Translations under genes and position numbers: made by a program
The notes under the pieces: model-generated
The model's input: the letters and a program-made list of their open reading frames with translations, nothing else
What the model was told of the DNA's origin: nothing
Database searches by the model: none
DNA from: a virus
IMG/VR virus record: IMGVR_UViG_3300028844_003870
DNA: 49,893 nucleotides
Reading direction: 5' to 3' (one strand)
In this document: positions 10,933 to 47,259 of the stretch, one piece after another
Numbering within the stretch: position 1 is the stretch's first letter
Layout: every line of letters begins with the position of its first letter

Positions 10933-10956
10933 TGCTATACTGTTAACTGTGTCACA
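10933..10956 (+). promoter_or_regulatory. extended -10-like TGCTATACT plus TGTTA-N6-TCACA dyad
   Basis: TGCTATACT 10933-10941; dyad 10941-10956; 13-mer GTCACACTTTAGG (10951-10963) recurs at 44796-44808. Confidence 0.5.
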
Positions 10957-10970
10957 CTTTAGGAATTACC

Positions 10971-11402
10971 ATGGCAAATTACACAACAATTAATGATGAG
11001 GTTATTGCTTTGTTTCGATCAGAAATGGCGGCTTTTACTGATGAATCAGCGTGGCCTGATGATATCGTCGAGCAAGCTTTATGTGAAGCAGATAGCGAAA
11101 CAGGCAGTAGAGGTTGGGGAAAGTTTAAAGCTGAATGTCGAAACTTTAAAAAGCGCGGTATGTTTTATTATGCGGCTCATTGGTTGGCTACTACTTATGT
11201 AGATCAAACTGCTGCAGACGCCTCCAATGTATCACCTAGCGCACGTTTAAATGTAGCGAGTAAATCAGTAGGGGATGAAAGCGTAACCTATAGAGTAGGG
11301 GCAATCCAAAGCACCGAGGACGACTATCTTTCATTAACAAACTACGGTGTCCAGTATTTGCGACTTCGCAAGCGCGCTGCAATGGGAGCTAGGATCGCAT
11401 GA
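10971..11402 (+). CDS. head-tail connector/adaptor-like protein
   Basis: First gene after the head block; size and position typical (DUF4054-like by recollection). Confidence 0.5.
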   Translation: MANYTTINDEVIALFRSEMAAFTDESAWPDDIVEQALCEADSETGSRGWGKFKAECRNFKKRGMFYYAAHWLATTYVDQTAADASNVSPSARLNVASKSVGDESVTYRVGAIQSTEDDYLSLTNYGVQYLRLRKRAAMGARIA

Positions 11403-11992
11403 TAAACGTATCAGTAACAGGATTACAAGAAGCACAAAGCGCACTAAGAAAAGAAATAGAGAAGCTTGTTGCTGATAAAAAATCTGTACTGGTTGGTATT
11501 CATGATGACGCTGGAGACGTTGATGGCGGCGACCTGACCATGGCAAAGCTAGGCGCTATACTTCACTTCGGAGCTGACATCGATCACCCGGGCGGCACGT
11601 CATACGGATATAAAACAAAAAAAGACCAAGAAACAGGGCGGGTATCATTCCTTAAAAAAGGGGCTGGTGTTCTTGAGATTGGCGTCACCAAACCTCATAA
11701 AATAAAAATACCTCCTAGACCTTGGCTTGATGTTGGGGTTAAAACTGGCGTGAAAGATTACGTTAGCATATTAAAAGATAACGGTGACGATTTAGATAAT
11801 GCGCTTAATTTAATTGGACTAACTGCAGTGGGAAAGGTTCAGCAATATATGACCGAGCTGAAGTCGCCCCCTAATGCAAAGAGCACGATAAGAAAGAAAA
11901 AATCGGCAAATCCTCTTATTAATAATGGCGCATTACGTCAATCAGTTACATATTCAATCACTAGCGAAGAAGTTAGAGAGGGGCTAGAATAA
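11399..11992 (+). CDS. neck/head-completion protein (putative)
   Basis: ATGA overlap with the upstream gene; position in the neck module. Confidence 0.5.
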   Translation: MINVSVTGLQEAQSALRKEIEKLVADKKSVLVGIHDDAGDVDGGDLTMAKLGAILHFGADIDHPGGTSYGYKTKKDQETGRVSFLKKGAGVLEIGVTKPHKIKIPPRPWLDVGVKTGVKDYVSILKDNGDDLDNALNLIGLTAVGKVQQYMTELKSPPNAKSTIRKKKSANPLINNGALRQSVTYSITSEEVREGLE

Positions 11993-12378
11993 TGGCTAGA
12001 CTAACAAGTATAGACATGGGTGGTCACATTGATGACGTTTTCCAGTCTGGAACAGGATTTCGTATAGCTAAATCGGGGGGCGGTTATGTATCTGGGATTT
12101 GGGAGGATGGCATTGAAACAGTCACGCCGCACAAAATAAACATCCAACCACTCAACCAGAAAGATATTAACTTCTTGCAATTAGGCGGTGAACGCATACA
12201 GGACACGCGAAAGATTTATGTGAACGATGGTGTTAGCCCGTCCATTAGCGAGGCTGATACGTGGACTTTGGTTGATGTAAACGGAAATTTAATTAACGGC
12301 ACGTTTAAGGTATATAGCTTAGACAATAGGCCGTGGCGAAACTACTGCCGATTTTATGCAGTGAGGTTAGATGTATGA
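11992..12378 (+). CDS. neck protein (putative)
   Basis: Start overlaps the upstream stop; position only. Confidence 0.5.
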   Translation: MARLTSIDMGGHIDDVFQSGTGFRIAKSGGGYVSGIWEDGIETVTPHKINIQPLNQKDINFLQLGGERIQDTRKIYVNDGVSPSISEADTWTLVDVNGNLINGTFKVYSLDNRPWRNYCRFYAVRLDV

Positions 12379-12977
12379 CACGCGAAGAATTATTTGAAAT
12401 TATGCGCCCTATCGTTATTGCAAAAACGGGCGTAACAGAATGCATATTGGCTGATCCAAATGCTACAGCTCCAAGTGGTGATTATGCTGCAATAGAGCCT
12501 TTTTCTAACATTAGCGAAGTCGGCACGGGCGGAACATCACAAGAAATTATTAATGCGACTGATGGCAGTGGATATAAAGATATTGAAGTGACCGTTAGAT
12601 CTAGCCAAGAAGTTACAGTGTCAGTTAATTTCTATCGTGGAGACGCAAGAAACTACGCATCAAAACTTATGCAAGCGGATAAATTCCCATCTACTCATGA
12701 AACCATGCTTATAAATGGTCTAGGCTGGATGCGTACTAGCGAGGTTAATAATTTAACAGCACTAAATCAGGGCAGACAAGAACCTCGGTCACAAATTTAT
12801 ATTTACTTGCGCAGGATGGAAGTTGCAAAAGAAGCGGTTAATCAAATCTACAGTGTTGAAGCTATTCTTTATGACGAGTTTGGAAGAGTGGTAAGCGAGG
12901 TTGGAACTACAGCATGCAATGCCGATACAAACGATCTCGAACAGGCAGTTCAAAACTATGCTAATTCAACGAAATAA
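12375..12977 (+). CDS. tail-completion/terminator-like protein (putative)
   Basis: ORF-track 12333-12977 trimmed to the ATG at 12375 (ATGA overlap); lies just before the sheath gene. Confidence 0.5.
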   Translation: MTREELFEIMRPIVIAKTGVTECILADPNATAPSGDYAAIEPFSNISEVGTGGTSQEIINATDGSGYKDIEVTVRSSQEVTVSVNFYRGDARNYASKLMQADKFPSTHETMLINGLGWMRTSEVNNLTALNQGRQEPRSQIYIYLRRMEVAKEAVNQIYSVEAILYDEFGRVVSEVGTTACNADTNDLEQAVQNYANSTK

Positions 12978-12991
12978 GGTAATATACAAGG

Positions 12992-13007
12992 TGTGATACA
13001 CTTCACA
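12992..13007. promoter_or_regulatory. perfect TGTGA-N6-TCACA dyad
   Basis: TGTGATACACTTCACA, 29 nt upstream of the sheath ATG. Confidence 0.55.
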
Positions 13008-13010
13008 CTT

Positions 13011-13024
13011 TTGATTGCAATCAA
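13011..13024. promoter_or_regulatory. perfect 14-bp palindrome TTGATTGCAATCAA
   Basis: Self-complementary when read on both strands; sits between the dyad and the sheath RBS. Confidence 0.5.
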
Positions 13025-13036
13025 TAGGAAAATACT

Positions 13037-14185: not shown

Positions 14186-14195
14186 GGTGAAATAG

Positions 14196-14606: not shown

Positions 14607-14611
14607 ATAAT

Positions 14612-14639
14612 AAAGCCCTCGTAATTGAGGGCTTTTTTT
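14612..14639. terminator. bidirectional terminator
   Basis: AAAGCCCTC-GTAATT-GAGGGCTTT followed by a T-run; convergent junction. Confidence 0.75.
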
Positions 14640-14844
14640 ATTGCTCTTCTAGATATATGCGCACCGAGTTAAACGCCTCTCCGCTTATCTCCACCCTTCC
14701 ATTTTTAGTTATAAGATCTTGCATTAAATCCTTCTTTTTTATGGCATAATCCTTGTTATAAGTAACCATAATATCCATTCTATTTAGAAGACCATAAGAA
14801 GACCAATCTTCAACCTTTACCACGTAGGCGTAATTATTTATCAT
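14638..14844 (-). CDS. hypothetical protein (68 aa)
   Basis: ORF track; overlaps the upstream Imm-like gene by 11 nt. Confidence 0.55.
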   Translation of the reverse strand: MINNYAYVVKVEDWSSYGLLNRMDIMVTYNKDYAIKKKDLMQDLITKNGRVEISGEAFNSVRIYLEEQ

Positions 14845-15019
14845 CCATTACACTCCAAACCAAAGCAATAAACCAAGGGATAATTGTAAAAAATCCGATG
14901 ATGTTGCAGATCATAATTGGCAATAAGTTTCTGTGATTGCGCTTACTTGCAATAATTGAAGGTAAAAACGCAATCCAAATGCCAATCGCTAAAAAAACTA
15001 AAAATATTAAAAATTCCAT
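14834..15019 (-). CDS. superinfection-immunity (Imm-family-like) membrane protein
   Basis: Two TM helices with FLPSIIASKRNHRN...FFTIIPWFIALVWSV, matching the Imm-type motif as I recall it. Confidence 0.65.
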   Translation of the reverse strand: MEFLIFLVFLAIGIWIAFLPSIIASKRNHRNLLPIMICNIIGFFTIIPWFIALVWSVMDDK

Positions 15020-15078
15020 AATGTTTCTCTCTCTTGATTTAAGTTGTGTTTACTATAGACTTATAAAACAAACAATAC

Positions 15079-15094
15079 CGTGACGGTTATCACA
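15079..15094. promoter_or_regulatory. CGTGA-N6-TCACA dyad plus extra ATCACA half-site
   Basis: CGTGACGGTTATCACA with ATCACA again at 15097-15102; 23 nt upstream of the 15118 ATG. Confidence 0.5.
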
Positions 15095-15117
15095 TTATCA
15101 CACAAGAGGTCTAAATA

Positions 15118-15695: not shown

Positions 15696-15696
15696 A

Positions 15697-15909
15697 TTAA
15701 GCCTCTTTATGGGGCTTTGTTTTTTTGCAATAAATCCACTTGCCTCGACCAATTAAAAAAGCGCACGGCATATCCCAGTTTGGTGGTATTATTTCGACAA
15801 TATTCCCATAATCATTTGTTACAAACTCATCATCAATAAGTTTGTAAGCTTTTCCTTTGGTTAGGCTAGGAACCCTGCTTTCACATTCAAATTTTACATA
15901 TACATCCAT
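15697..15909 (-). CDS. hypothetical protein (70 aa)
   Basis: ORF track; AAGGAAG RBS. Confidence 0.55.
   Translation of the reverse strand: MDVYVKFECESRVPSLTKGKAYKLIDDEFVTNDYGNIVEIIPPNWDMPCAFLIGRGKWIYCKKTKPHKEA
15699..15727. terminator. bidirectional terminator
   Basis: GCCTC-TTTAT-GGGGC followed by a T-run; overlaps the 3' end of the minus-strand 15697-15909 gene. Confidence 0.65.
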
Positions 15910-15998
15910 TTCACTTCCTTAGTTATCGTTAAATTCACAGCGATTATAAACCATGCTATTATACAAACAGTGATACAACTCTCATTTTTAGGATTCTC
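15910..15998. repeat. divergent intergenic cassette, copy 1 (homologous to 17995-18084)
   Basis: Identical 16-mer GTTATCGTTAAATTCA (15922-15937 and 18001-18016); shared ATTATA..AACC; extended -10-like TGCTATTAT; AGTGA-N6-TCTCA (15969-15984); AGGATT RBS. Confidence 0.7.
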
Positions 15999-17354: not shown

Positions 17355-18020
17355 TTATTTAACCAGCGCCCAGTCTCCTACATGGCTGTATCTCCCAGAT
17401 TTTAAGTGAGATATGGCCCCTCTGCGCATCCCTGTCTTTCTTGCGATTTCATTCCCATTGTTGGCCTCTATAGTTTCACCTGTCTTAGTGTTTTTTAGTG
17501 TAAAGACTCCCATTCTATGCTTTGAGATCTCAATATTTCTTTCTTTGATAGTTACAATTCTTACTGTTTGTTTGCAGTATACGGTTGCATTGTTGTTTTT
17601 AACCATGAATAATTTTAAATCTGGGTTATTTTCTTCATACCATCGCTCGAAATTGGTGAAATTCAACCACTCACTGCAAACCCTAGCTCCTCCGCTAACG
17701 TAAGATTCTAGCATTGTTGCCCATGCGTTGTGTGTTTTTTTGTTTGTTTGTCCGTGCCTCCTTTCTCTACCCATGTATCCTATGCCGTATTTCAGCCTTG
17801 CGTATGGATCATTAACTTTTCCACGTCTAGCGTTTGCGTTGCTAGTCAATCTTTCATAACCAGTATTAATAAACTTAACTCGCACCTCTGCCAAAGTGTG
17901 ACCTATTTTTATGACTTTAAAGTCGCCGCATACTGTAGACGTAATAATCTCACCGACCCTTACAGGGTTTATCATCATTCTCATATCTTTTGTTTCCATT
18001 GTTATCGTTAAATTCAACAT
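17355..18020 (-). CDS. homing-endonuclease-like DNA-binding protein (start uncertain; 17999 possible)
   Basis: YGIGYMG...HNAWATML...VCSEWLNFTNFERWY block seen in free-standing phage endonuclease-like genes, plus a C-terminal NUMOD1-type HTH-like segment (ARKTGMRRGAISHLKSG). Opposite strand, wedged with 0 nt spacing after the tape measure gene. Confidence 0.5.
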   Translation of the reverse strand: MLNLTITMETKDMRMMINPVRVGEIITSTVCGDFKVIKIGHTLAEVRVKFINTGYERLTSNANARRGKVNDPYARLKYGIGYMGRERRHGQTNKKTHNAWATMLESYVSGGARVCSEWLNFTNFERWYEENNPDLKLFMVKNNNATVYCKQTVRIVTIKERNIEISKHRMGVFTLKNTKTGETIEANNGNEIARKTGMRRGAISHLKSGRYSHVGDWALVK

Positions 18021-18084
18021 TATAGTAACCTGTGATATGATATAAAACAGTGACGAACATCACAATTAACAAACAGGATTAAAA
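17995..18084. repeat. divergent intergenic cassette, copy 2
   Basis: Same 16-mer at 18001-18016; TGATATAAA extended -10-like (18038-18046); AGTGA-N6-TCACA dyad at 18049-18064; AGGATT RBS. Confidence 0.7.
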
Positions 18085-18744
18085 ATGTCTCTGCTTTCTT
18101 TATTAACAAAAAAACCGCCTAAGTTTGGTTATGGCGAAATGACAATTACATTTGATGCTGTGCTTGAGGATACCCTTGAGGCAGAGGTTCAGCTATCTGA
18201 TTACCCTATTGAAGTTGGCTCAGTATCAAACGACCACCGCATCAAACTTCCTATAAAATGGACTATTACGGGCGGCATATCAAATAACCCTGTAAAGATA
18301 TCTGCTACAGACTTCACCGGCGTACTCTCTGAAATATCAAGTGAAAACGGATTGCTATCACGAACTGCGGGTTATATGGCCGGATGGTTAAGCGGAGATA
18401 AAGAAACTAGAAACTCTGACGCACTCAGATCGCTATTAACTTTAATGTATCAGGGCGACCCGTTCACCGTTGATGCTGGTGATACTTCTTTGCCTAATAT
18501 GGTTATTCAAAGAATACGACGCACAAAAGACGCAAGTAACGAAAACGGTTTGGTGTTTATTGCTGAGTTGCGAGAGTGGCAGGATATTACAACCAGTCAA
18601 AGCTCAGTGTTAGACTTACCAACGAAAACAAATGAAACAGAAGAAGGCGCAAGTGCTATCTCTAACTATGTTAACAAAGGCTTAAAGCAAGTTAAAACAG
18701 CAGGCGCTACTGTTAATGACGCGGTTGCGGGGTGGTTTAAATGA
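18085..18744 (+). CDS. tail/baseplate hub-proximal protein (putative)
   Basis: First gene after the tape measure block; position only. Confidence 0.5.
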   Translation: MSLLSLLTKKPPKFGYGEMTITFDAVLEDTLEAEVQLSDYPIEVGSVSNDHRIKLPIKWTITGGISNNPVKISATDFTGVLSEISSENGLLSRTAGYMAGWLSGDKETRNSDALRSLLTLMYQGDPFTVDAGDTSLPNMVIQRIRRTKDASNENGLVFIAELREWQDITTSQSSVLDLPTKTNETEEGASAISNYVNKGLKQVKTAGATVNDAVAGWFK

Positions 18745-19957: not shown

Positions 19958-20707
19958 ATGAATGCAGGAAGAACACAAGAAATATTTAGAGAGCTATTAA
20001 AAGATGTAGGGACAAACATTACAGGTCATTTGCTTGCGTTTGATACTACAACTCAGCTTGCTCAAGTTCAGATTGGCGTACTTGCTTCAGATAGAAATGG
20101 CAATGTAATCACCCCATCGCCAATCATTCAATGTCCCGTTCATTTTTCGGGCGGTGCTGACTGGCAGTTTGAGCACAAAATAATGCCGGGTGATGAAGGC
20201 TTGATTGTATTCTCTCAGCGATGCATTGACGGATGGATACAAACAGGAGGAGTTGCCAACAATCCTATTGCACGGTTTCATGACAAACAAGACGCCTGCT
20301 TTATTCCTGGGTTTAGATCTAAATCAAAAGCGATTAGCGGCTTTGCAAATGATGGCGTTAAGCTAAGAAATAAAGACAACACTATTTACCATTGGATAAA
20401 AGACGATGGCACTATTGAATCTAAAAACCCACTGGCGACACACAACATAATGCCAACAGGCGCTATAAATTCAATTAATGCGGCAGGGTTTATCAGTTTG
20501 TTAGATAATGGAACCGTAAATATTAACGGCTTCACTATTACTCCAAACGGTGCAGCAGTAAGCCCTGTATCGGTAACGGCTGCAACATTAATTGCTGTCA
20601 CATCATTAACTGTTGCAGGTAAAGAGCAAAAAGGCCACGCGCACGCGCCGGGTACATATAAAGCAGGTAGCACAGACGTAGTCGGAATATCAGGGGTACA
20701 ACCATAA
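19958..20707 (+). CDS. baseplate spike / gpV-like protein (putative)
   Basis: Order hub, spike, wedge; C-terminal Gly/Ala/Thr-rich beta segment. Confidence 0.5.
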   Translation: MNAGRTQEIFRELLKDVGTNITGHLLAFDTTTQLAQVQIGVLASDRNGNVITPSPIIQCPVHFSGGADWQFEHKIMPGDEGLIVFSQRCIDGWIQTGGVANNPIARFHDKQDACFIPGFRSKSKAISGFANDGVKLRNKDNTIYHWIKDDGTIESKNPLATHNIMPTGAINSINAAGFISLLDNGTVNINGFTITPNGAAVSPVSVTAATLIAVTSLTVAGKEQKGHAHAPGTYKAGSTDVVGISGVQP

Positions 20708-26599: not shown

Positions 26600-26629
26600 A
26601 AAGGGAGCTTAATTGCTCCCTTACTTTTT
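26600..26629. terminator. bidirectional terminator at the late/early convergence
   Basis: AAGGGAGC-TTAATT-GCTCCCTT with flanking A/T runs. Confidence 0.75.
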
Positions 26630-27218
26630 AGTGTTGATCTCCTTCGTCTGCGTCTAGCGGTCGCGAGTCTGAAAGCCGTTTAAGTTGTTCTTGTGTTAAC
26701 GTGCCGGTTTGTTGGCATCGGTGTATAATCGCTTCCAATGTCATTTTTCCGCTTTCCATTGCGGATACCATTGAAGGCAGCGCGTTATTAAACTGCTCTT
26801 CTGGATATGCAGGGGATTGCATTGTTAAGTGTGCAACAGGGAAAGGTACACGCTTAGAACGGTTAATTGACAACGTCGCCTTAATTCCGCGCTCTGGAAT
26901 ATCTGACATTGCTCGAATGTGTATGCCGCCTACTTCTTTACCAGCATAAACAACAGTTGGCTCGTTGAATATTTGAACTGATTTACCAATCCAATTATCC
27001 GACTCTGCACCCCATCCTGCCGATAGTATACGAACCATTCCAGTGCTTACACGCCACGGACGACCTTCGCCACCATGATAGTGAACCCACACAGTTGGCT
27101 TTCCTGATTCATTGGTAATATTTACACTTGCAATAGTGATTACAGGCTCAACACCTAAAATATCCATTGCATTAAGCTGATTGCTCTTTGCTTGCATTGC
27201 TCCGCTTACATCTGCCAT
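26628..27218 (-). CDS. hypothetical protein with acidic C-terminal tail (possible ssDNA-binding/annealing partner of the exonuclease)
   Basis: 196 aa ending LDADEGDQH; start overlaps the exonuclease stop; function inferred from context only. Confidence 0.55.
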   Translation of the reverse strand: MADVSGAMQAKSNQLNAMDILGVEPVITIASVNITNESGKPTVWVHYHGGEGRPWRVSTGMVRILSAGWGAESDNWIGKSVQIFNEPTVVYAGKEVGGIHIRAMSDIPERGIKATLSINRSKRVPFPVAHLTMQSPAYPEEQFNNALPSMVSAMESGKMTLEAIIHRCQQTGTLTQEQLKRLSDSRPLDADEGDQH

Positions 27219-28081
27219 TATGATAACGCCTCTTCAAATTGATTTAGAACCCAGTTAGGGAGTGAAATAATTGTACTTTGATTATTGTTATGTGCCTTTA
27301 CATTGCCTTTTTTATACTCGAGTAGTGAAAGCATATCTATCTTAACTTCATCTGATGCTATTTTCTGTGATAGGTCGCACAGTTCATATACTTCTACAAC
27401 ATGTGGGTAAACATCTTCTACCGCTATAAATTTAAACACAGTTAAATCTTTACCAGTTATCGCTTTAAAACCCATTTTATAAATGCAATCTTGAACATGG
27501 TATCGATAATCCCAGATTGATTTAGAGAATTTGTAATCATCTGCGCCTTGTGTTTTTTTAAGATCAACGCCTACCCATTCATTACCAATAAATGCCAACT
27601 TATCGAATCGGACACGCATTTGCAATCCACTAATAGGGCATAAGAAAAACCCTGACACTTCAAAATAGCCCGGTGCAGTAAGCAATACATTCGCATCATG
27701 ATTATTATGCACCGCTGTTTGCATGCCTGATATTTTTTCGCAGTCGTCATTTGTGAATACTTTTCCTTCGCCAAGCGCTTTAGCAGCTTGTTTGTATTCT
27801 GGTTGGCGGCGATCTTTAACCTCTGGCAATAACATATACTCCTGAGCAAATAAATCAGGCTCTAAACAAGCCGCATGGATTGCACTGCCTAATTCCATTG
27901 GTCGAGTTTGCTTGCGTTGTTTTCTGTTAAAATATTTGTATGGGTTTTCATGGAAAACGTCGATACTTGATTTACTGTCGCCCTTTGATGCGTGGTACAC
28001 GTCATTAGGCATGTTTAAATAAAAGTATCCGTTTTCTATTTCAAGACCTTCTTCATATATTTTTAATGGTAAGTTGTTCAT
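27218..28081 (-). CDS. PD-(D/E)XK family exonuclease (RecB/Cas4-like fold)
   Basis: GSAIHAACLEPDLF, ...VGVDLKKTQ... (D..(D/E)xK core), YRYHVQ. Confidence 0.65.
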   Translation of the reverse strand: MNNLPLKIYEEGLEIENGYFYLNMPNDVYHASKGDSKSSIDVFHENPYKYFNRKQRKQTRPMELGSAIHAACLEPDLFAQEYMLLPEVKDRRQPEYKQAAKALGEGKVFTNDDCEKISGMQTAVHNNHDANVLLTAPGYFEVSGFFLCPISGLQMRVRFDKLAFIGNEWVGVDLKKTQGADDYKFSKSIWDYRYHVQDCIYKMGFKAITGKDLTVFKFIAVEDVYPHVVEVYELCDLSQKIASDEVKIDMLSLLEYKKGNVKAHNNNQSTIISLPNWVLNQFEEALS

Positions 28082-28323: not shown

Positions 28324-28805
28324 TTGTACTCCTTAACGTATTCAGTGAATGCTTGTTTAACTGCGTCTAATCCAAGTGCAACAATAGCAATGTTTCCGTG
28401 TTGCTGTTGTGATGAAAGTCTCAGTAATTGATCTTCAAAATGAAATTTCATCTTTTTGCTTGCTAAAGACTTCGCTATGTTCTTTCTCTTTAGCTCGCAT
28501 ATAAACGCAGGAGCGCCTTTTGATATTGGCAGGCACACAATGTCAGCTAAACCATCTAAACGCCCCTTAGCTTTCGATTTGGCGTGGTATGCGTAAGAGC
28601 TACCACCTTGCGGGTTAAACTCTGTTTCAGCATGAAATATTAAATTGTAATATTCTTTATGTTCATAACGAACCCATGCAAAGAAACTAGCCAAGTCTGT
28701 ATCTTCTTTGGGGCAATCGCCACGGTATTTAATATCGCCAACAATTTTAATGCGTAAATCTTCCGCTAACTCAATTGATGATTTTAGTGTTTTATTCTTC
28801 TGCAT
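28320..28805 (-). CDS. PD-(D/E)XK nuclease, VRR-NUC-like
   Basis: GLADIVCLPISKGAPAFICELKRKN fits the G-x-PD...E-x-K core; trimmed to the ATG after AGAGG. Confidence 0.5.
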   Translation of the reverse strand: MQKNKTLKSSIELAEDLRIKIVGDIKYRGDCPKEDTDLASFFAWVRYEHKEYYNLIFHAETEFNPQGGSSYAYHAKSKAKGRLDGLADIVCLPISKGAPAFICELKRKNIAKSLASKKMKFHFEDQLLRLSSQQQHGNIAIVALGLDAVKQAFTEYVKEYK

Positions 28806-32249: not shown

Positions 32250-32349
32250 GGTAATTCCTTTAAGTGGGTTTGTTTTAGATAGGTACATTAAACCCCATTA
32301 CAAAAATAATATCTGTGATGGGGTTCATGGTTTTGTGATTAGATAAAGG

Positions 32350-32922
32350 TTACTGGTTTAATTTTATTTCAATAGAGTTAGGGGCCTCATTTCCGAAAAC
32401 GTCCCAACCCTCCGAAGCATTTCTGGCGAACATTTCAAGCCTTGGGATGTCTCCGAATAAGCTTTCTATTCTAGTCATCACTTCTTTTGGCTTTCTGCTG
32501 TGCTTTGTTCTTTCTGCAATAACGAGTGACTCTATATTATTCGCTAACTTGTATTTTGACATCGCCCCTTTTGTAGCAAGAATGCAAACTTCACTGCTTT
32601 TCATTGTCCATGGGGCAACGTTTTTGCAATAATTCCCCTTGCTTGTGGTTTTAACCCAGTTGAAGGCAATTGTTTTGAACTTAAATCCCCACGCACTAAC
32701 TAACTCTAGCGCATCTGGAAGGTGTGAGTCGGTCACCCACATGAACAAAGCGCAGTCATCGTCGCTTATGGACTTAATGTCCATCATGGCAAGGTCTTTT
32801 GTTTTTGTTGTCATGTATTGCTCCGATAAGCTTTTAATCTCGTTTCCTTTAGAATTGTTAACTGCAGACTTACTTCCATAGTGCCATGGTGGATCAGCGT
32901 AAATTACTTTGTATTTTTTCAT
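32350..32922 (-). CDS. MT-A70-family DNA N6-adenine methyltransferase
   Basis: KVIYADPPWHYGS (DPPW catalytic motif) at the N-terminus; 190 aa. Confidence 0.85.
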   Translation of the reverse strand: MKKYKVIYADPPWHYGSKSAVNNSKGNEIKSLSEQYMTTKTKDLAMMDIKSISDDDCALFMWVTDSHLPDALELVSAWGFKFKTIAFNWVKTTSKGNYCKNVAPWTMKSSEVCILATKGAMSKYKLANNIESLVIAERTKHSRKPKEVMTRIESLFGDIPRLEMFARNASEGWDVFGNEAPNSIEIKLNQ

Positions 32923-35335: not shown

Positions 35336-36538
35336 TTAATATTTACCAAACATTCCAGCGTCGTCAGAGTTTCCGACTTCTTCCTGGTGTAGCATATAGT
35401 TTTGACGGCCAACTTCTTTGCCGCATACATGGTATTCAACCATGACGCACTCTAGCTCACTCAGATAGCCTTTTGATGCGTGCCATGCATCATTGGGAGC
35501 TAAGTTTGCAAAGCCTTCTACCTTGCCGCCTAGGGACTCAATGACTGATTTAGAGTGAAAGTGACCGTGTAATGCTCGACGCAAAATAGTATCGCCCCAC
35601 ATTTTAGGCTCTTTAGCAGACATATAAGGGATCATCTTTATTGGTGTGATGTTGTGACCATGAGTAGCCATGAGCATAACTTTACCGAACTGATAAAACC
35701 ATGTATCTGCTGGGGACATTTCTATTGATACCCGTGGTTCATTTCTCCAGTAGGCGTCCATTTGATAGCGCAAAGCCATTGCCAGCTCTAAGTCATGATT
35801 ACCTAACACGTTTCTCACAACTACTTTTTTGTGCTTCTGCAGTGCCATTTCTGTGATCTGGTTCATAACTTGGCATGTGATTCTAAATATCTTATCAACA
35901 CGACCATCTGCATCTAATGGGTTGCCACTTGCCTTGGTGGAATGTGTGTCATCATGAAAGTGAATTGCATCACCTAAGTTTAATATGATCGCTGTTTCTG
36001 AGTTGTTTGCACGTCCTATTAAGTCGGCCATTGAATTTATCATATCGCTTGTTGCAATCTTAAGATTGAAATCTACTCCTACCTCTTCATGCCAGGCGTG
36101 CATACCAAAGTGCATATCACCGATGTTGTAAACACTTAGCAAGTCTTTGTTATTTTTACGTGGCACTCGTATCTTTGGCGCTAAACCTTCGATCTGTTTA
36201 GTCATATCAGTAAGAACTCGGCTTACTGCTGCAATAGGATCGTTAGCTTTTGTCTTGATCCAACAAGGCTTACCCTCTGCATTGGTAACCATGTTAGAGA
36301 CTTCTTTAATATGAAACCCATCTGGAACCATGTCGCCAATACCTACATCATGAGGCTTGGTTAGTTGTTTATTTGCCTTGTTACGTACCGCTTTTAACTG
36401 TTGTGTAACGCAAGGCTGTGTAATGCCCAAGTGTTCAGCTACGGCTTTTTGCGTGCCTAATTTAACAAAAGCATCTACAATTTTTTTCTGCTTGTTAGTG
36501 CAAAACTGGTCTATATTTGGATCTGTGTAATCAAACAT
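35336..36538 (-). CDS. HTH domain fused to a calcineurin-like metallophosphoesterase
   Basis: N-terminal KIVDAFVKLGTQKAVAEHLGITQPCVTQQLKAVRNKA (sigma-r4/LuxR-like HTH), then IGDMHFG, LGDAIHFHD, LGNHD, THGH, HGHFH phosphoesterase blocks. Confidence 0.75.
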   Translation of the reverse strand: MFDYTDPNIDQFCTNKQKKIVDAFVKLGTQKAVAEHLGITQPCVTQQLKAVRNKANKQLTKPHDVGIGDMVPDGFHIKEVSNMVTNAEGKPCWIKTKANDPIAAVSRVLTDMTKQIEGLAPKIRVPRKNNKDLLSVYNIGDMHFGMHAWHEEVGVDFNLKIATSDMINSMADLIGRANNSETAIILNLGDAIHFHDDTHSTKASGNPLDADGRVDKIFRITCQVMNQITEMALQKHKKVVVRNVLGNHDLELAMALRYQMDAYWRNEPRVSIEMSPADTWFYQFGKVMLMATHGHNITPIKMIPYMSAKEPKMWGDTILRRALHGHFHSKSVIESLGGKVEGFANLAPNDAWHASKGYLSELECVMVEYHVCGKEVGRQNYMLHQEEVGNSDDAGMFGKY

Positions 36539-37890: not shown

Positions 37891-37950
37891 TTATTATTTA
37901 ATATATATTTAATATATAGGTTATTATTTATATATGCAAATTATTATTTA
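37891..37950. repeat. AT-rich iteron-like cluster
   Basis: TTATTATTTA at 37891, 37921 and 37941; TTTAATATATA twice between 37897 and 37918. Confidence 0.6.
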
Positions 37951-38160
37951 AAATTTATTACTGACGAATGTGGTCACTGATACCGTTTTCTTTTTAAGAC
38001 CTAGATCAGCAAGCATTGCATCAGATGGTGGTTTATTCTTGTTAAGAACGGCATTAAGATACTGCCTAGATACACCCTTTCTTTCAGCATAAACGCTATT
38101 TCTGCCGCATTGAGCTTTAATGAATTTCTCTAGTTTTTTAATTACTTCATCTATTTCCAT
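37948..38160 (-). CDS. Cro/YdaS-like HTH regulator
   Basis: NSVYAERKGVSRQYLNAVLNKNKPPS; first gene of the minus-strand early block; trimmed to the ATG after GAGGAG. Confidence 0.6.
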   Translation of the reverse strand: MEIDEVIKKLEKFIKAQCGRNSVYAERKGVSRQYLNAVLNKNKPPSDAMLADLGLKKKTVSVTTFVSNKF

Positions 38161-38187: not shown

Positions 38188-38759
38188 ACAATATAATAGT
38201 AATATAGAGATGTCAACCTTATTTTGGCTTACAAGTTAAACCGTTTCTTGGTTGACAAAAATGGGGCTTTTTACCAATTTTCTTGAACATTGAAGGTGAT
38301 CCGCACGTAAAAAACAATGCAATCTGTCACTTTAAACGGGCTTGCAAGCCTTGGTATCACTAGCTTTATGTTTTTTAGATACCTCTATTTGCAAAAGTAC
38401 AGTGATATCCCCCACTACCAACCTAGCACCAGATAAAACTAGCCTCTCTAATCTAATAAAAAATAAATAATATAAGGGATTTATTGTATATATTATTATT
38501 ATAAGGAATTATTTAGCTAAAAAGCTTTATAAATCAATAGCTTACGTCATTTTCAAATGTGCAGGCGCTTGTGTACTTAGACTGTACTTATACAGAAAAT
38601 TTTTTTTGATGATGGTAAGTTGTTGATAAATAAGACTTTGATATATTTCTCAATGTGCACAGTAAATAAATCACGCCCATTCAATCAAAGCTATACCACC
38701 AAAGCCCCATAAGTGGTAAAGTTTAATCTCATTATTATTTGTTTTTTATAGGGGGATTT
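38188..38759. other. 570-bp noncoding control region (divergent early/packaging junction)
   Basis: No ORF of 60 aa or more. Palindrome GGCTTGCAAGCC 38339-38350; inverted repeat GTCAACC (38212)/GGTTGAC (38250); TGTACTTA motifs at 38395-38401 (rc), 38572-38579, 38583-38590. Confidence 0.6.
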
Positions 38760-40683: not shown

Positions 40684-40707
40684 AGCCCCTTAATTGGGGC
40701 TTTTGTT
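40684..40707. terminator. bidirectional terminator
   Basis: AGCCCC-TTAATT-GGGGCT followed by T's; near-identical to 43745-43762. Confidence 0.7.
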
Positions 40708-41035: not shown

Positions 41036-41092
41036 AATAACCTCTTAAATTATTGTTAGTTTTACTAGTATACGCGCCACTTAATATTTATC

Positions 41093-41108
41093 CGTGACGC
41101 GTTTCACA
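41093..41108. promoter_or_regulatory. CGTGA-N6-TCACA dyad
   Basis: CGTGACGCGTTTCACA followed by CTTTA, as at 10956 and 44801, but no plus-strand gene follows. Confidence 0.45.
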
Positions 41109-41392: not shown

Positions 41393-41395
41393 TGT

Positions 41396-41572
41396 TTAAT
41401 CCTTTTTATATACTGGCCGGAATTTCTGTTTTCCATTGGGGTGTGTGCAGTAATCATCCCTTATGCGCTTTGAAGCTGAAATTATTCCTCGAAGTGAAAA
41501 CAGGACAGCCCCAATCTTCCCGCTTGTGTAAACTCGATTGTACCCTATAACTTCTGGCTTAATTTGTTGCAT
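41396..41572 (-). CDS. hypothetical protein (58 aa)
   Basis: Hand-translated MQQIKPEVIGYNRVYTSGKIGAVLFSLRG...; GGAG RBS; fills an otherwise empty 150-nt gap. Confidence 0.35.
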   Translation of the reverse strand: MQQIKPEVIGYNRVYTSGKIGAVLFSLRGIISASKRIRDDYCTHPNGKQKFRPVYKKD

Positions 41573-41919
41573 GCTTGCTCCTGTTTAACTAAGATATAAA
41601 CGATTGTTACAGCGCGTTTAGGATTTTTGCCCATAGCCAGCATTTCATTGCTAAATTCAGTCCTTACAAACCACTCTACTTCACCTCCTAAATTAACAGG
41701 GTCAAGCCCTATTTTAAATTCATCAATCAAATCTCCGCAATTCGACCAACTACCGCAAGGGTTGTAGCTGCCATCCACAAACGCCCCGTTAACGTGAACC
41801 TGCACACCAAACTTTGCAGGGGATGTTGTTATTTCACCGCTGTCATAAAAATTATTAGCCGCGACCACGTTTAATTCAAAGTCGCTCATTGATTCTAATT
41901 GTTCTTGTGTAAATTCCAT
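41545..41919 (-). CDS. NinX/DUF2591-like protein
   Basis: MSDFELNVVAANNF...YNPCGSWSNCGDLIDEFKIGL resembles the NinX family (from memory). Confidence 0.55.
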   Translation of the reverse strand: MEFTQEQLESMSDFELNVVAANNFYDSGEITTSPAKFGVQVHVNGAFVDGSYNPCGSWSNCGDLIDEFKIGLDPVNLGGEVEWFVRTEFSNEMLAMGKNPKRAVTIVYILVKQEQACNKLSQKL

Positions 41920-41933: not shown

Positions 41934-42278
41934 TTACATTAAACCGGCTTTCTTTAGGATAGCCTCTGCGTCAGTTATGGTGCTTGTGATTACTTGCTCG
42001 ACTGGCTTTCTACGCTTGCCCTGCATGCTTCTTTTTATGTTACCCTTTATTATCATGGCCTCTTGTTGCGCCTCGCTAATAAAATAAAGAACACTTCTAT
42101 TTTTGCCAGGCTTTTGACTGATTAGCTTTTCTTTTCTTGATAGCATCCACAACCTAGTATTGGCTATGTGCAAATCCATCCCAGTAGCCTCTGCAAACTC
42201 GTATTTATTAAACCATCTATCAACGGGCGCTGTTTGTGCTATCTGCTTAAGCGTTGTTGTTACTTGTTTCTTTTTCAT
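41934..42278 (-). CDS. hypothetical protein, possible winged-helix DNA-binding
   Basis: ORF track; basic; FAEATGMDLHIANTRLWMLSRKEKL. Confidence 0.5.
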   Translation of the reverse strand: MKKKQVTTTLKQIAQTAPVDRWFNKYEFAEATGMDLHIANTRLWMLSRKEKLISQKPGKNRSVLYFISEAQQEAMIIKGNIKRSMQGKRRKPVEQVITSTITDAEAILKKAGLM

Positions 42279-42341
42279 TGGATGAGCCTTAATTATCTGT
42301 TTAAATTACCCATCTATAATAACTAATTTATTTAATGTACA

Positions 42342-42357
42342 ATGTGAGGACTATCAC
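42342..42357. promoter_or_regulatory. perfect TGTGA-N6-TCACA dyad
   Basis: TGTGAGGACTATCACA, 26 nt upstream of the portal ATG; closely resembles 18049-18067. Confidence 0.55.
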
Positions 42358-42383
42358 AATTTGCAAATTGATGAGTAAAATAA

Positions 42384-43739: not shown

Positions 43740-43741
43740 TA

Positions 43742-43769
43742 AAAAGCCCCGTGATTGGGGCTTTGTTTT
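43742..43769. terminator. bidirectional terminator
   Basis: AAAGCCCC-GTGATT-GGGGCTTT followed by T's. Confidence 0.75.
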
Positions 43770-43950: not shown

Positions 43951-44306
43951 TCACCCCCAAACTCAATTTTACCTAGTGATTTGCCTACAATCATACCGTA
44001 TGTGCTAGGGCAATCCCATATTATGGAGCTAACACGGTGATTAGAATTGATAGGCTCCTTTAAAAATTCCCCAGTGTAATAACAGATGAACTCACGCCCT
44101 TCAAATAGGCAAGGGTACCAATGCCCTTTAATGAATTCGCGCGGTTTGATTCTGAATTTGTAAAGACCTTCTGTGTCAGCTATAACATTAGGAGCTTCCA
44201 CGTAAACTACCGAATTTGAGCCAGTTATCATTTCAACCTGTTTTGATGTGTCACCAATCAATTCAACTATCAAATCATGGTGTGGGTGTTTGTTGTTATT
44301 TTTCAT
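43947..44306 (-). CDS. hypothetical protein, paralog B (119 aa)
   Basis: Paralog of 40706-41035. Confidence 0.6.
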   Translation of the reverse strand: MKNNNKHPHHDLIVELIGDTSKQVEMITGSNSVVYVEAPNVIADTEGLYKFRIKPREFIKGHWYPCLFEGREFICYYTGEFLKEPINSNHRVSSIIWDCPSTYGMIVGKSLGKIEFGGE

Positions 44307-44384
44307 TGTTACTTCCTTAATTACTTGTTAGTTTACATAATAATGTATCAAGTGATATTATAAACCGTGATGTAACTCATGCTT

Positions 44385-44726
44385 TTACATAACACCCATA
44401 TGAACATCAACATCATTAAATGATATAAAGTGATTTGCTATACCGCTTATAGAGCTCATTTGATGTCCAGTTGCCTTTCCAGTGCATCTATAATTAACAC
44501 CATTAATAATGATTACAGAATCTGATGCACCGCTGTAAACAAGATCAACCAGCAGGTCTGACTCTTTTGATCCAGATTCGCAAGTTACTCTTATCGCAAT
44601 TGACCACGATGCGCATCCATTTGATGGGCTTGTCAGCTCCCCAGTCACATTTTTAATTGAATGCCCTGCCCATATAAACTCCATGACTGCATTTTTAATC
44701 AAACGTCCTCCCCATATGAATTCCAT
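44385..44726 (-). CDS. hypothetical protein with duplicated N-terminus
   Basis: MEFIWGGRLIKNAV / MEFIWAGHSIKNVT: a 42-nt tandem duplication at the 5' end. Confidence 0.5.
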   Translation of the reverse strand: MEFIWGGRLIKNAVMEFIWAGHSIKNVTGELTSPSNGCASWSIAIRVTCESGSKESDLLVDLVYSGASDSVIIINGVNYRCTGKATGHQMSSISGIANHFISFNDVDVHMGVM

Positions 44727-44785
44727 AACTTACCCCGTATATTTATTTGTGTTAAAGTATAATAATCTAAACAGAAAACATTTAA

Positions 44786-44801
44786 TGTTAACCACGTCAC
44801 A
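44786..44801. promoter_or_regulatory. TGTTA-N6-TCACA dyad
   Basis: TGTTAACCACGTCACA, 13 nt upstream of the 44815 ATG; leader 13-mer shared with 10951-10963. Confidence 0.5.
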
Positions 44802-44814
44802 CTTTAGGTAACTC

Positions 44815-45711
44815 ATGGCTATATTATCAAGTAAAGATTTATTGCAACAACAACTGGCAGAAATTAGCGAGTTACAAGCAGCTAAAACAAAGCCTGTGGA
44901 ACTGCCGAAAGATATAGGTGTGCAATACAATGCTTCACTGCAAAAACTTGTTAGGGCTATGAATAAGGATATTAACAAAGCCATCTTGCCGCAGGTTAAG
45001 GCGTTGAAGTTTGAATACACTGCAGATAGCTGGGTTGATGTTATTGAAGTGACTATTGCAGCATTAAAAGCACGATGGAATGGCGAACGGTTTAATCAAT
45101 GGGCTAGTCGAACAGCTTCGACGTTTATTAATTCAGTAAATCAAAGTAACCAGGAAAAATTAAACAAGCAATTTAAAAGCTTTGGTATTAATGTTTTCGG
45201 TAATAATACGGCTGTAAGTGATTACCTTGATGCTTCAGTGAAAGATAACGTGCGATTAATAACGTCCATACAAGAGCAGTATTTAACGCAAGTTGAAAGC
45301 ATAGTGTTGGGTGGCATGCGTCAGGGCTCAATGCCTAGTGCAATTACAGAGCAGCTACAAGCGCAGTTTGGCATTACTAAGCGCAGGGCTAGGGTAATAT
45401 CGAGAGATCAGACTTCTAAGGCTGCAAATGGACTAGCCAAAAAAAGAATGGAGTCGGCAGGTGTTAAATACTTTCAGTGGCTAGATAGCAATGACCAAAG
45501 AGTAAGAACTCGTCATCGTCACATTGCCAACAATGTGACCAAATATGGAAAGGGTATTTATTCTTTTGATGATTTACCTATAGGTGAGCAAGGTGTGCCT
45601 GTGGCTCCAGGAGATCCAATACAATGTCGCTGTGTAATGAGGCCAGTGCTAGAAAGTGAAATAAAGGCCAACATAAAAGCTGGCCGTATTGATAAGGGTG
45701 TTAGGCGTTAA
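44815..45711 (+). CDS. head morphogenesis protein (Mu F / SPP1 gp7-like)
   Basis: ...WLDSNDQRVRTRHRHIAN...PGDPIQCRCV typical of the Mu F family. Confidence 0.75.
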   Translation: MAILSSKDLLQQQLAEISELQAAKTKPVELPKDIGVQYNASLQKLVRAMNKDINKAILPQVKALKFEYTADSWVDVIEVTIAALKARWNGERFNQWASRTASTFINSVNQSNQEKLNKQFKSFGINVFGNNTAVSDYLDASVKDNVRLITSIQEQYLTQVESIVLGGMRQGSMPSAITEQLQAQFGITKRRARVISRDQTSKAANGLAKKRMESAGVKYFQWLDSNDQRVRTRHRHIANNVTKYGKGIYSFDDLPIGEQGVPVAPGDPIQCRCVMRPVLESEIKANIKAGRIDKGVRR

Positions 45712-45948
45712 CTACACCTTACTTAATTTTTCATCAATCTTTAGCAGCATGTAGCTCAGCCTGTTAGAGATTATATCAATTCTGCACATGTGTGCTGTTT
45801 GAAAGTCTATTCTAATGGTCATAGACACATTGTCTTTCTCGATGCGTATTTCGTAAAAGTTCTTTTTAGTGTCGATTACTATCTCATAATAAAGATCATT
45901 AGACCTCGCAAACTCTTTAACTTTCCTTTTTACGGCTGAGTGATCCAC
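45712..45948 (-). CDS. hypothetical protein (78 aa)
   Basis: ORF track. Confidence 0.5.
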   Translation of the reverse strand: MDHSAVKRKVKEFARSNDLYYEIVIDTKKNFYEIRIEKDNVSMTIRIDFQTAHMCRIDIISNRLSYMLLKIDEKLSKV

Positions 45949-46154
45949 TACTTCCCCTCCAATTCATTTATCTTATCATGTAGCAACCTAACGCGCGCTT
46001 TGAGAGATCTTTGATTCATCTTTAGTGAGTTAATAGCTAAAAACAAAGTCTCCGCTGTGTGCGTTATGCTGTCCGTATGAAGCAATTCAGCTTTAGACTC
46101 TTTTATTGCTTCTTCGATTTTCTTTGTGCTTAGGATGTTTAGCTTTGAACTCAT
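45948..46154 (-). CDS. hypothetical coiled-coil protein (68 aa)
   Basis: ORF track. Confidence 0.5.
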   Translation of the reverse strand: MSSKLNILSTKKIEEAIKESKAELLHTDSITHTAETLFLAINSLKMNQRSLKARVRLLHDKINELEGK

Positions 46155-46226
46155 ACATCACACCCCCATTTGTTAGCTCGATTTGATTTATAAAAGAATA
46201 GCCATTGCTGCAATTTGAATTTCATT

Positions 46227-46502
46227 TTAATAATCCTTAATGATAATTGTTCCGACTGGCTTGTCGGTAATTCCGACTAACTCAATGTTTACGTTTTCTT
46301 GCATCTCTGCAACAGATAAAGGGGCGCCAGTTGATATTACAAATGGAAAGGTTTTACCATCTGAATGCCCTTTGTTTTTATTGTCAGGCCACATGCGCAA
46401 TGCTGATACGTAATTACTAGCCACTACTAGCATATTATTTAACTGGTCGTAGTCTTTCTCTTTTGCTTCTAGGTGATATAAATTATTCATTTGCCACTCC
46501 AT
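46227..46502 (-). CDS. hypothetical protein (91 aa)
   Basis: ORF track. Confidence 0.55.
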   Translation of the reverse strand: MEWQMNNLYHLEAKEKDYDQLNNMLVVASNYVSALRMWPDNKNKGHSDGKTFPFVISTGAPLSVAEMQENVNIELVGITDKPVGTIIIKDY

Positions 46503-46731
46503 TGTTATTAACCTTACTTAGCAAGCAGAAAGCTGTATCTCTTGCTTCTTCCTCATTTATTTCAAAATCACTACCCATAACGATTTTGGTTATCGCTTCT
46601 AAATTTTCCGTGTCAGAAGCAGTTAGGGTGAAGTGAACACCGTTTTTACATAGTCCGATTGACTTTCCAGTGTTGAATTTTGATGGCTTATCAATTGTTC
46701 CGGTTACTCGCTTAAAGTTAATTGCTTTCAT
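46483..46731 (-). CDS. hypothetical protein (82 aa)
   Basis: ORF-track 46483-46755 (TTG) trimmed to the ATG after AAGAGG. Confidence 0.55.
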   Translation of the reverse strand: MKAINFKRVTGTIDKPSKFNTGKSIGLCKNGVHFTLTASDTENLEAITKIVMGSDFEINEEEARDTAFCLLSKVNNNGVANE

Positions 46732-46755
46732 TGCTATACCTCTTGTTAATTTCAA

Positions 46756-47259
46756 TATCCAAATAATACCCTAAACACCTAGGGCATGTTGTGATGGGTG
46801 TCACGATTATTTAACAGGGTTACTTTTTATCATTCAACCTCCTAAGTAAAGAGTCAATAAATAGCGCTAAATTGTGGTGATTATTGCCATTTTCCTGCAC
46901 CAATCCACCAAAGTGCAATTGTCTGTCGAAATGGATTTGCTTGCAGGCTATTGATATTAATAAGGAATCGGGATTCTCTGGACTTAGTACAGTAAGTACA
47001 CGCCCTAACGCACTAACTATAAATTTATCTCTAAATAATATTTAATAAAAAATATTATATATAATATATTGTATAATTGTACTTATAAGCTTTTTTAGAG
47101 TCTAAGTGTTTGATATTAAAAGGAAATCAAAAGTACAGTTCGACTGTTTTTTATGTGCACTTGTACAATTTGTTCGTTTTTTAACCAGTAAAGCTTTGTT
47201 TTATTATCTTTACTTGCCTAGGGAGGGTGTTAATATTTAGTTTTTAATCGAGGTGAAAA
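46756..47259. other. 500-bp noncoding control region
   Basis: No ORF of 60 aa or more. TGTACTTA motifs at 46993-47000 (rc), 47078-47085, 47131-47137 (rc); AGTAAAGAGT at 46847-46856; very AT-rich core 47030-47075. Confidence 0.6.
46790..46805. promoter_or_regulatory. TGTGA-N6-TCACG dyad
   Basis: TGTGATGGGTGTCACG, upstream of the minus-strand 46731 start. Confidence 0.45.

Follow-up and report, generated by a model that had tools for sequence, protein, structure and literature searches.

The question raised by the DNA stretch analysed here (IMG/VR virus record IMGVR_UViG_3300028844_003870, 49,893 nucleotides, in the following termed the window) concerns a family of dyads of the type TGTGA-N6-TCACA, which are dispersed over this Vibrio myophage sequence of about 50 kb. 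In a first-pass annotation, the dyads had been placed at nearly every restart of rightward late transcription and had been considered either as DNA operators or as hairpins of the leader RNA. Based on the sequence comparisons described below, it is fairly probable that they are sites on the DNA at which an activator of the CRP type binds as a dimer in front of leftward promoters, the cyclic AMP (cAMP)-CRP of the Vibrio host being the most likely protein.

Perfect dyads occur three times in the window (6194, 12992 and 42343) compared to 0.07 expected, and none of 100 dinucleotide-preserving shuffles reached this number. If one mismatch is allowed, the window holds 12 sites against 2.04 expected, which was again not reached in any of 100 shuffles; chance palindromes are thereby excluded. 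Eight to nine of these 12 sites are intergenic, compared to an intergenic share of the window of 8-13% (binomial p ~1e-6), while the three further one-mismatch sites in coding DNA (27366, 28408 and 35852) are near the chance number, so that the motif is not equally dense inside and outside of genes. Altogether, the view of the first-pass annotation that the dyads are real, non-random, intergenic and conserved is confirmed by the shuffles, the location and the relatives, and their predicted role as protein-binding sites on DNA is supported. The positions and sequences given there were correct for all sites except the one at the portal junction, which comprises 42343-42358 instead of starting at 42342 and lies 25 and not 26 nt before the ATG. 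The 13-mer GTCACACTTTAGG shared by the regions following 10941 and 44786 was found as described, as was the extra ATCACA half-site at 15097-15102, located 2 nt after the 15079 dyad, for which no partner half-site was found. The sites set apart as weaker indeed carry two (15969, 32314) or three mismatches (44366).

The closest records belong to a set of 240 phages from Nahant seawater and oysters, with an identity to the window of about 73% at best; hosts of the relatives are Vibrio cyclitrophicus and V. crassostreae. Three genomes were used for comparison, namely Vibrio phage 120E34-1 (L001), phage 1.286.O (L006) and an IMG/VR relative (L002). L001 showed 16 such sites compared to 1.9 expected, and dyads were found at the equivalent junctions in L006 and in the IMG/VR relative. 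An alignment of the portal junction of the window and all three genomes showed that the half-sites and the leftward -10 element are kept, whereas the dyad spacer and the remaining intergenic DNA have diverged. A search of IMG/VR with the portal gene gave only four loci, and no relatives of the sheath gene were found there. In distant relatives (portal 53% identical), the terminase, portal and head-morphogenesis genes are contiguous on one strand, with neither leftward inserts nor a dyad upstream of the portal gene. Since the relatives without inserts are also those without the dyad, the dyads come with the leftward cassettes.

The most regular feature of the dyads is found on the strand opposite to the late genes. 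Reading leftward in the window, L001, L006 and L002, the 16-mer is followed after exactly 21 nt by a hexamer of the type TAnnnT (TATAGT, TATTAT, TATGGT or TATTGT), and the histogram of TAnnnT positions after the dyad shows a single sharp peak at this distance. The spacing of 21 nt was observed for nine of the 12 window sites; L001 showed it at 11 of 16 sites and L006 at 11 of 17, compared to about 0.5 expected at any one spacing. Eight of the nine window sites point leftward; the ninth hexamer, a TAATGT overlapping a start codon, is probably due to chance. Two more window sites (15969 and 41093) have a spacing of 20 nt. A position weight matrix (PWM) trained on the relatives only (24 sites), with the best score in 20 shuffled genomes as threshold, recovered seven window sites above the best shuffle, all of them on the minus strand. 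Its information is concentrated in GTGA and TCAC, and the 16-bp core required for a CRP-type site is present. Furthermore, the PWM comprises a conserved G immediately following the dyad (-33), equivalent to the one in TTGACA, and another located two bases ahead of the hexamer (-14), equivalent to that of an extended -10; nothing else resembles a -35 element. A sigma-70 scan that required both hexamers showed no promoter excess, the -35 of the dyad promoters being weak or absent.

With the start taken 7 nt after the hexamer, the sum of 8 + 21 + 6 + 6 = 41 places the dyad centre at a predicted -41.5 of the leftward promoters, which is the class II geometry of CRP and FNR. In total, about ten window sites combine a dyad at this predicted position of a minus-strand promoter with TAnnnT, G at -14, G at -33 and no -35 element, and at nine sites the predicted +1 leads via a leader of 24-31 nt to a Shine-Dalgarno (SD) sequence and an ATG. 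The genes served are accessory or of an early type (Imm, an N6/N4 methylase, two HNH/homing endonucleases, NinX and small proteins). The Vibrio CRP consensus is TGTGA-N6-TCACA, and a location 41.5 bp upstream of the start is a common arrangement for activation by CRP (PMC10328515). CRP, one of the binding proteins suggested in the first-pass annotation, is therefore a sensible candidate, since the motif equals its consensus and the predicted geometry is class II. Known class II promoters such as E. coli galP1 and V. cholerae murQP (PMC10328515) likewise carry the CRP site at -41.5 in place of the -35, and galP1 also has a -10 with a G at -14 (extended -10). On every sequence feature examined, the predicted dyad promoters match this type. 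They differ in that the window would comprise about ten mostly near-consensus copies in 50 kb, many of which overlap a divergent promoter, and in being known from sequence. The individual elements are collected in Table 1.

Table 1. Dyads, candidate promoter elements, terminators and genes of the window (distances of -10 elements refer to the dyad; start sites and promoter assignments are predictions).
Feature	Position	Strand	Remarks
Perfect dyad	6194..6209		abuts stop codon of 5873-6193; rightward TGgTATACT 6232-6240, 25 nt away
Dyad TGTTAACTGTGTCACA	10941..10956		1 mismatch; PWM 35.0, minus strand; predicted at -41.5 of leftward and ~+1 of rightward head-completion promoter
Leftward -10 TATGGT	10914..10919	-	21 nt; would serve HNH (10276-10830) and methylase (9387-10301)
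Rightward -10 TATACT (TGc-extended)	10936..10941	+	last T = dyad position 1
Perfect dyad, sheath	12992..13007		29 nt before sheath ATG; neither side has a -10 at 20-22 nt
Perfect FNR-consensus palindrome TTGATTGCAATCAA	13011..13024		3 nt after sheath dyad, 12 nt before sheath ATG
Dyad CGTGACGGTTATCACA	15079..15094		1 mismatch; PWM 34.6
Leftward -10 TATAGT	15052..15057	-	21 nt; 26-nt leader to ATG 15019 (Imm)
Dyad AGTGATACAACTCTCA	15969..15984		2 mismatches
Leftward -10 TATAAT	15943..15948	-	20 nt; 27-nt leader to ATG 15909
Rightward extended -10 TGcTATTAT	15957..15962	+	6 nt before dyad; -35 TTCACA at 15934; +1 at dyad edge
Dyad AGTGACGAACATCACA	18049..18064		1 mismatch; PWM 34.5
Leftward -10 TACTAT	18022..18027	-	21 nt; overlapping TATAAT 18019-18024; would serve HNH/homing endonuclease 17355-18020
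Rightward extended -10 candidates TGaTATGAT, TGaTATAAA	18036..18046	+	immediately upstream of dyad
Coding-region dyad TGTGATAGGTCGCACA	27366..27381		leftward TAAGAT 27339-27344 at 21 nt
Coding-region dyad TGTGATGAAAGTCTCA	28408..28423		leftward TATTGT 28381-28386 at 21 nt; ATG 28323 lies 51 nt further
Weak dyad TGTGATGGGGTTCATG	32314..32329		2 mismatches; PWM 15.2, barely above best shuffle
Leftward -10 TTTAAT	32287..32292	-	21 nt; 31-nt leader to ATG 32249
Dyad CGTGACGCGTTTCACA	41093..41108		1 mismatch; flanked by two leftward genes
Leftward -10 TATACT	41067..41072	-	20 nt; 25-nt leader to ATG 41035
Perfect dyad TGTGAGGACTATCACA	42343..42358		portal junction; PWM 26.5
Leftward -10 TATTAT	42316..42321	-	21 nt; 31-nt leader to ATG 42278; kept in L001, L006, L002
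Rightward -10 TACAAT	42338..42343	+	last base on dyad position 1; portal gene restart
Degenerate dyad CGTGATGTAACTCATG	44366..44381		3 mismatches; leftward TATTAT 44337-44342 at 23 nt; own TTTATA -35-like hexamer
Dyad TGTTAACCACGTCACA	44786..44801		1 mismatch; PWM 19.5
Leftward -10 TATTAT	44759..44764	-	21 nt; would serve gene 44385-44726
Rightward -10-like TTTAAT	44781..44786	+	last base on dyad position 1; head-morphogenesis restart
Dyad TGTGATGGGTGTCACG	46790..46805		1 mismatch; PWM 21.9
Leftward -10 TATTAT	46763..46768	-	21 nt; 25-nt leader to ATG 46731
Canonical sigma-70 promoter TTGACA-17-TATTGT	38188-38216	-	heads operon starting with 37948-38160
Bidirectional terminator hairpin	14612..14635		+ strand tail-tube operon meets leftward cassette
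Similar terminator hairpins	9378-9398 and 15699-15717		
Terminator	40684..40701	+	after large terminase gene
Terminator	43743-43764		after portal gene
N6/N4 DNA methylase gene	9387-10301	-	leftward cassette
HNH endonuclease gene	10276-10830	-	leftward cassette
Imm superinfection-immunity gene	14834-15019	-	leftward cassette
HNH/homing endonuclease gene	17355-18020	-	leftward cassette
MT-A70 methylase gene	32350-32922	-	leftward cassettes/module
NinX gene	41545-41919	-	leftward cassettes/module

Two of the sites in coding regions also show the leftward spacing. The position of the 28408 dyad is conserved (36336 in L001, 37998 in L006) and likely serves an internal promoter; the dyad at 27366, with orthologues at 35355 in L001 and 36782 in L006, is a possible internal promoter for 26628-27218. 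Both are directed towards the beginning of the leftward gene that comes next. As a side observation on the leaders, the predicted leftward transcripts often start with (C)AACTTAAA(T/C) or GAATTTAA(C/G) just before the SD sequence, for example at 10900-10908 and 15038-15046 on the minus strand of the window and at 18425-18433, 20327-20335 and 10221-10229 in L001. Such words also follow the dyad promoters of an unrelated group of phage loci (L109 group), and the leader motif CAACTTAAA showed no genome-wide enrichment. Downstream of the 10941-driven promoter, the first SD sequence and ATG (10883-10885) open a very short minus-strand frame (10861-10885) before the HNH gene, which may represent a small upstream open reading frame or a wrongly placed gene start.

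The arrangement of the genes explains why both directions of transcription meet at the dyads. As in the annotated relatives, the plus strand carries the structural genes, and small clusters of minus-strand genes repeatedly split the structural operons, while the replication module at 26.6-38.2 kb lies on the minus strand. The hairpin terminators of Table 1 mark the places at which plus-strand operons run into the ends of the leftward clusters. Because terminators follow the terminase and the portal gene, plus-strand transcription must restart at the dyad junctions, and since bidirectional terminators close the cassettes, the late operons restart within the same short intergenic regions. Besides the genes listed in Table 1, the leftward cassettes hold many small proteins without assigned function. 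Imm is the only cassette gene kept in L001 and L006, for which reason the cassettes look moron-like and exchangeable; their gene content differs among the relatives, whereas the promoter design is constant.

The claim that dyads occur at nearly every late restart on the plus strand, often just past a -10-like element, was borne out by the rightward side of the junctions. For this comparison, the sites were pooled as 19 with and 29 without a rightward gene within about 40 nt of the dyad. A rightward TAnnnT (TATACT, TACAAT) ends on dyad position 1 at 12 of the 19 former sites compared to 1 of the 29 latter ones, and five of the 19 show a second register with an extended -10 TGcTATCAT located 7 nt upstream of the dyad. 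The predicted rightward +1 therefore falls into the middle or on the 5' edge of the dyad. With regard to the proposed link to rightward late genes, the overlap of restart sites and dyads was thus found, but the dominant regularity is the opposite-strand -10 at 21 nt, which belongs to leftward genes. The divergent -10 elements are 16 nt apart, and as each sits within the -35 region of the other, the two promoters would be mutually exclusive. Since the rightward -10 reaches into the dyad or borders on it, a dimer bound there would cover the rightward +1, and would be expected to favour leftward transcription while occluding the rightward promoter.

The overlap of the dyad with the -10 and +1 of rightward promoters in two fixed registers corresponds, on paper, to the layout of a repressor operator. 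It could be argued that the dyads act solely as repressor operators on the late +1, the leftward spacing being incidental, which would agree with both registers and with the sheath site, whose context is rightward only. We consider this improbable, because the sites without a rightward gene (41093, 46790, 28408 and, in L001, 2098, 6741 and 41359) keep the dyad together with a leftward -10 at 20-21 nt, because the rightward -10 occurs in two registers that differ by 8 nt while the leftward spacing does not vary, and because in Vibrio phage 1.276.O, a member of another lineage, the dyads lie upstream of genes oriented like the -10, without a divergent partner.

A more speculative extension of the activator reading, to which we would give only limited credit, is that the divergent junction works as a direction switch operated by one protein. 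One CRP dimer would bring polymerase to the leftward promoter, which is of an accessory or early type, and would meanwhile cover the rightward late +1, so that late structural transcription would start only once the dyads are emptied. This could be achieved in two ways: the replicating phage DNA, with 12-17 near-consensus sites per copy, could titrate the CRP pool and thereby act as a replication-coupled timer, or a drop of the host cAMP could free the dyads and gate virion production by the nutrient state, comparable to pseudolysogeny. In the gal P1/P2 region, a CRP dimer activates one promoter and excludes polymerase from an overlapping second one. The dyads would resemble this switch in that one dimer would activate one promoter and block the overlapping other. 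They differ from it, since the gal promoters are co-directional and 5 bp apart, whereas those of the window are divergent, with predicted starts about 41 bp apart, and would belong to different temporal or functional classes of genes.

The near-consensus sites per genome, 12-17 in number, could also be taken as high-affinity decoys that sequester host CRP and have no promoter role. For decoys, the fixed spacing of 21 nt, the strand bias and the leaders of 24-31 nt would be superfluous, and this explanation is given hardly any weight, together with that of chance palindromes.

A further possibility, raised in the first-pass annotation, is that the dyads function as RNA hairpins of the 5' leader with a 5-bp stem and a 6-nt loop, in the style of the T4 promoter-stem-loop cassettes. 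This would fit those sites at which the -10 sits 6-7 nt upstream and the RNA would start at the dyad. However, the TATAC|T register puts the rightward +1 inside the loop, and the dyad is located upstream of the leftward +1 and hence outside of the leftward transcripts. The predicted stabilities range from 0.0 to -8.4 kcal/mol, and the sites at 10941 and 44786 form no hairpin. Moreover, mismatches to the consensus disrupt the pairing and are compensated nowhere, and the stem reads TGTGA/TCACA in all paralogous copies. As a general explanation, the leader hairpin therefore fails on the two unfoldable sites, the lack of compensation and the leftward transcripts without a dyad, and is regarded as very unlikely. 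T4-type PeSL cassettes (PMC2839356) are alike in being repeated promoter modules bordering variable insertions of small genes. The repeat of the window differs in being a predicted activator site upstream of the -10 instead of a transcribed stem-loop, and its 21-nt spacers are non-homologous between copies.

In favour of an RNA structure, the leader of the sheath gene is predicted to form a pair of neighbouring hairpins (-12.3 kcal/mol, z = -2.6), both of which are kept in the relatives, with no covariation. The palindrome reaches beyond the dyad (8-9 predicted pairs), and the dyad itself is almost invariant between the window and the relatives. It lies at or just past the predicted +1 of a weak rightward -10 TAATAT (12980-12985), and no leftward gene is present. 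The sheath dyad may be an operator or a genuine leader structure. The neighbouring palindrome TTGATTGCAATCAA is identical in L001 (20984) and L006 (22813), although the identity of the coding DNA reaches only about 75%. By reading the sequences, no -10-like hexamer was found at the class II spacing (-41.5) on either side of it. As a second family, the FNR-like motif was not retained, since 10 sites with at most one mismatch compared to 4.1 expected are a borderline number and the sheath copy alone is notable.

The composite promoter is also found outside of this phage family. A scan of IMG/VR with the pattern dyad, G, 18 nt, G, n, TAnnnT gave at least 120 loci. Among the matches listed, 13 loci unrelated to the family of the window carry 3-6 dyads with a -10 at 21 nt, and these fall into about seven groups by BLAST. 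Unrelated loci in which the composite promoter recurs 3-6 times per contig comprise L109/L025/L042, L037/L113, L034/L089/L052, L044/L055/L074, L011, L043 and L048. The composite promoter is present in the group of Vibrio phage 1.276.O (358 records), in the 1.060.A/ZQ26 group, in Listonella (Vibrio) phage phiHSIC (L044/L055/L074; AY772740), in one contig of 34% GC, in one of 63% GC and in further unassigned groups. In phage 1.276.O itself, the dyad sites precede annotated genes, and one of them is flanked by two divergent -10 elements at 21 and 20 nt. Phage phiHSIC has been described in the literature as pseudotemperate. At L127 (MG592644 31595-43396), a perfect dyad (2906-2921) lies between divergent -10 elements, TAGACT at 21 nt leftward (RecT) and TATAAT at 20 nt rightward (DUF968 gene), and could thus serve as a class II activator site in both directions. 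The contig of 63% GC (L014, IMGVR_UViG_3300005438_000006) comprises six dyads (5127, 5734, 7982, 8520, 9147 and 12526), all with a -10 at 21 nt. Its spacers are nearly identical (TGTGACCAACGTCACA), its -10 elements have the form TGnTAGnnT, and its rIIA-like protein is nearest to those of Streptomyces phages (33-37% identity). Phages of high-GC hosts may therefore use this design as well. A single protein common to all dyad contigs was sought as well and was not found: in this non-exhaustive search of contigs that are fragments, only homologues of endolysin, SSB, HNH and terminase proteins were shared.

The same -41.5 architecture could be used by a phage-encoded early protein, dimeric and with a CRP-like specificity, in which case the leftward promoters would form a 'middle' class. 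Many small proteins of the window have no family match, which leaves room for such a factor. Yet no match to a cNMP-binding or HTH_Crp domain of Pfam was obtained in about 40 window proteins, including all unannotated ones of 180-250 amino acids. Of the 35 proteins that both relatives have in common, all but Imm are structural or replication proteins, and of the small early proteins none is kept even by the nearest relatives with dyads. The winged helix-turn-helix (HTH) proteins encoded at the head of one dyad-driven operon of the relatives are ruled out as the binding protein, since they have no homologue in the window. Beside the dyad heading this operon, iteron-like tandem words ATTACACGGA/ATTACACAGA were observed (8032-8090 in L001, 8652-8710 in L006), with no obvious equivalent at 46806-47259 of the window.

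Three proteins of the window had been put forward in the first-pass annotation as HTH candidates. The Metallophos-type protein 35336-36538, which was also considered as a cAMP phosphodiesterase or regulator and rejected in both roles, is a DNA repair exonuclease according to PHROG 704 (1e-89); it is SbcD-like, has no relative in the PDB and shows an HTH_1 match below threshold, although it is the only core protein with any HTH-like match. For 41934-42278, no match was found in Pfam, PHROGs, NCBIfam or the PDB, and it is not conserved in the relatives. The 70-amino-acid protein 37948-38160 fared partly better, as a Cro/YdaS-like HTH motif (GVSRQYLNAVLNK) can be recognized by eye, but it has no family match and is not conserved in the relatives either. 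Compared to a phage protein, CRP agrees with the motif and the predicted class II geometry, and promoters of this type are present in lineages whose only homologues in common with the window are those of endolysin, SSB, HNH and terminase proteins. We therefore regard a phage-encoded activator as rather unlikely, and since the design is shared across lineages and no phage candidate was found, a host factor, CRP or its homologues, is the most economical assumption.

Several observations nevertheless weigh against host CRP as the activator at class II promoters. Of the three perfect dyads, the one at 6194 and the conserved one of the sheath gene (12992) lack the class II spacing on either side; the centre of the former is at about -45.5 and does not lie on the helix face used in class II promoters. 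Site 44366, degenerate and with a spacing of 23 nt, is a weak or uncertain member of the family. The value of -41.5 assumes that the predicted start follows the -10 by the usual 7 nt, the binding of CRP is itself a prediction, and the named hosts are those of the relatives. In addition, the sigma-70 promoter at 38188-38216, probably a CRP-independent immediate-early promoter of the leftward replication module, could supply an early protein, its first gene encoding the Cro/YdaS-like protein mentioned above, and the nearly invariant dyad spacers of L014 could hint at a more specific protein there.

Host cAMP-CRP bound at -41.5 would, as we favour, activate the leftward promoters of the inserted cassettes and of parts of the leftward replication module. 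In the literature searched, no arrays of CRP-site promoters in Vibrio phages and no set of CRP sites in phage genomes were described. NtcA, the regulator of a related case, is a member of the CRP family. In T4-like cyanophages, NtcA promoters occur with 1-16 sites per genome (mean 8.9) and are thought to tie phage genes to host nutrients (PMC3037559). This system is alike in having multiple sites for a global host regulator per phage genome, and differs in regulator, signal and host, in resting on the motif model alone, and in that no overlap with divergent late promoters is described (PMC3037559). For phage T1, experimental evidence exists that the pir, dam and recE promoters are repressed by host cAMP-CRP (PMC6737242); here the host protein again acts on several phage promoters, with the difference that it represses and that no class II array is described. 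In phages phi29 and Nf, Spo0A boxes couple early and late promoters to the host physiology (PMC2731898), so that lytic phages with sites for a host master regulator are known, albeit with repression and a replication block, a Gram-positive host and another site architecture. Considering these three precedents, the earlier statement that no comparable phage regulon is known was too strong.

Two further observations concern the window outside of the dyads. An Rfam scan showed two tRNA genes (48567-48645 and 48651-48724) and nothing else, of which ARAGORN calls only the second (tRNA-Lys, anticodon UUU). In both large intergenic regions, AT-rich runs of low complexity of the types TATATAATATAT and AATAATATAAGG were observed (47035-47085 and 38450-38510), which could represent an origin, a packaging site or a strong promoter region.

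Should these promoters be driven by host cAMP-CRP, the accessory genes of a large group of marine Vibrio phages would be coupled to the carbon and energy status of the host. The scope would then comprise the 240 related records and at least three unrelated lineages of Vibrio phages, with immunity, methylase and homing endonuclease genes among those controlled. If the switch model holds as well, one dimer would choose between an early leftward and an overlapping late rightward promoter. The combination of dyad, 21 nt and G-n-TAnnnT also provides a searchable promoter rule for phages whose promoters are unannotated or were called with generic tools. Since the content of the cassettes varies and the promoter design remains constant, the promoter is suggested to take part in fitting new genes into these phage genomes.

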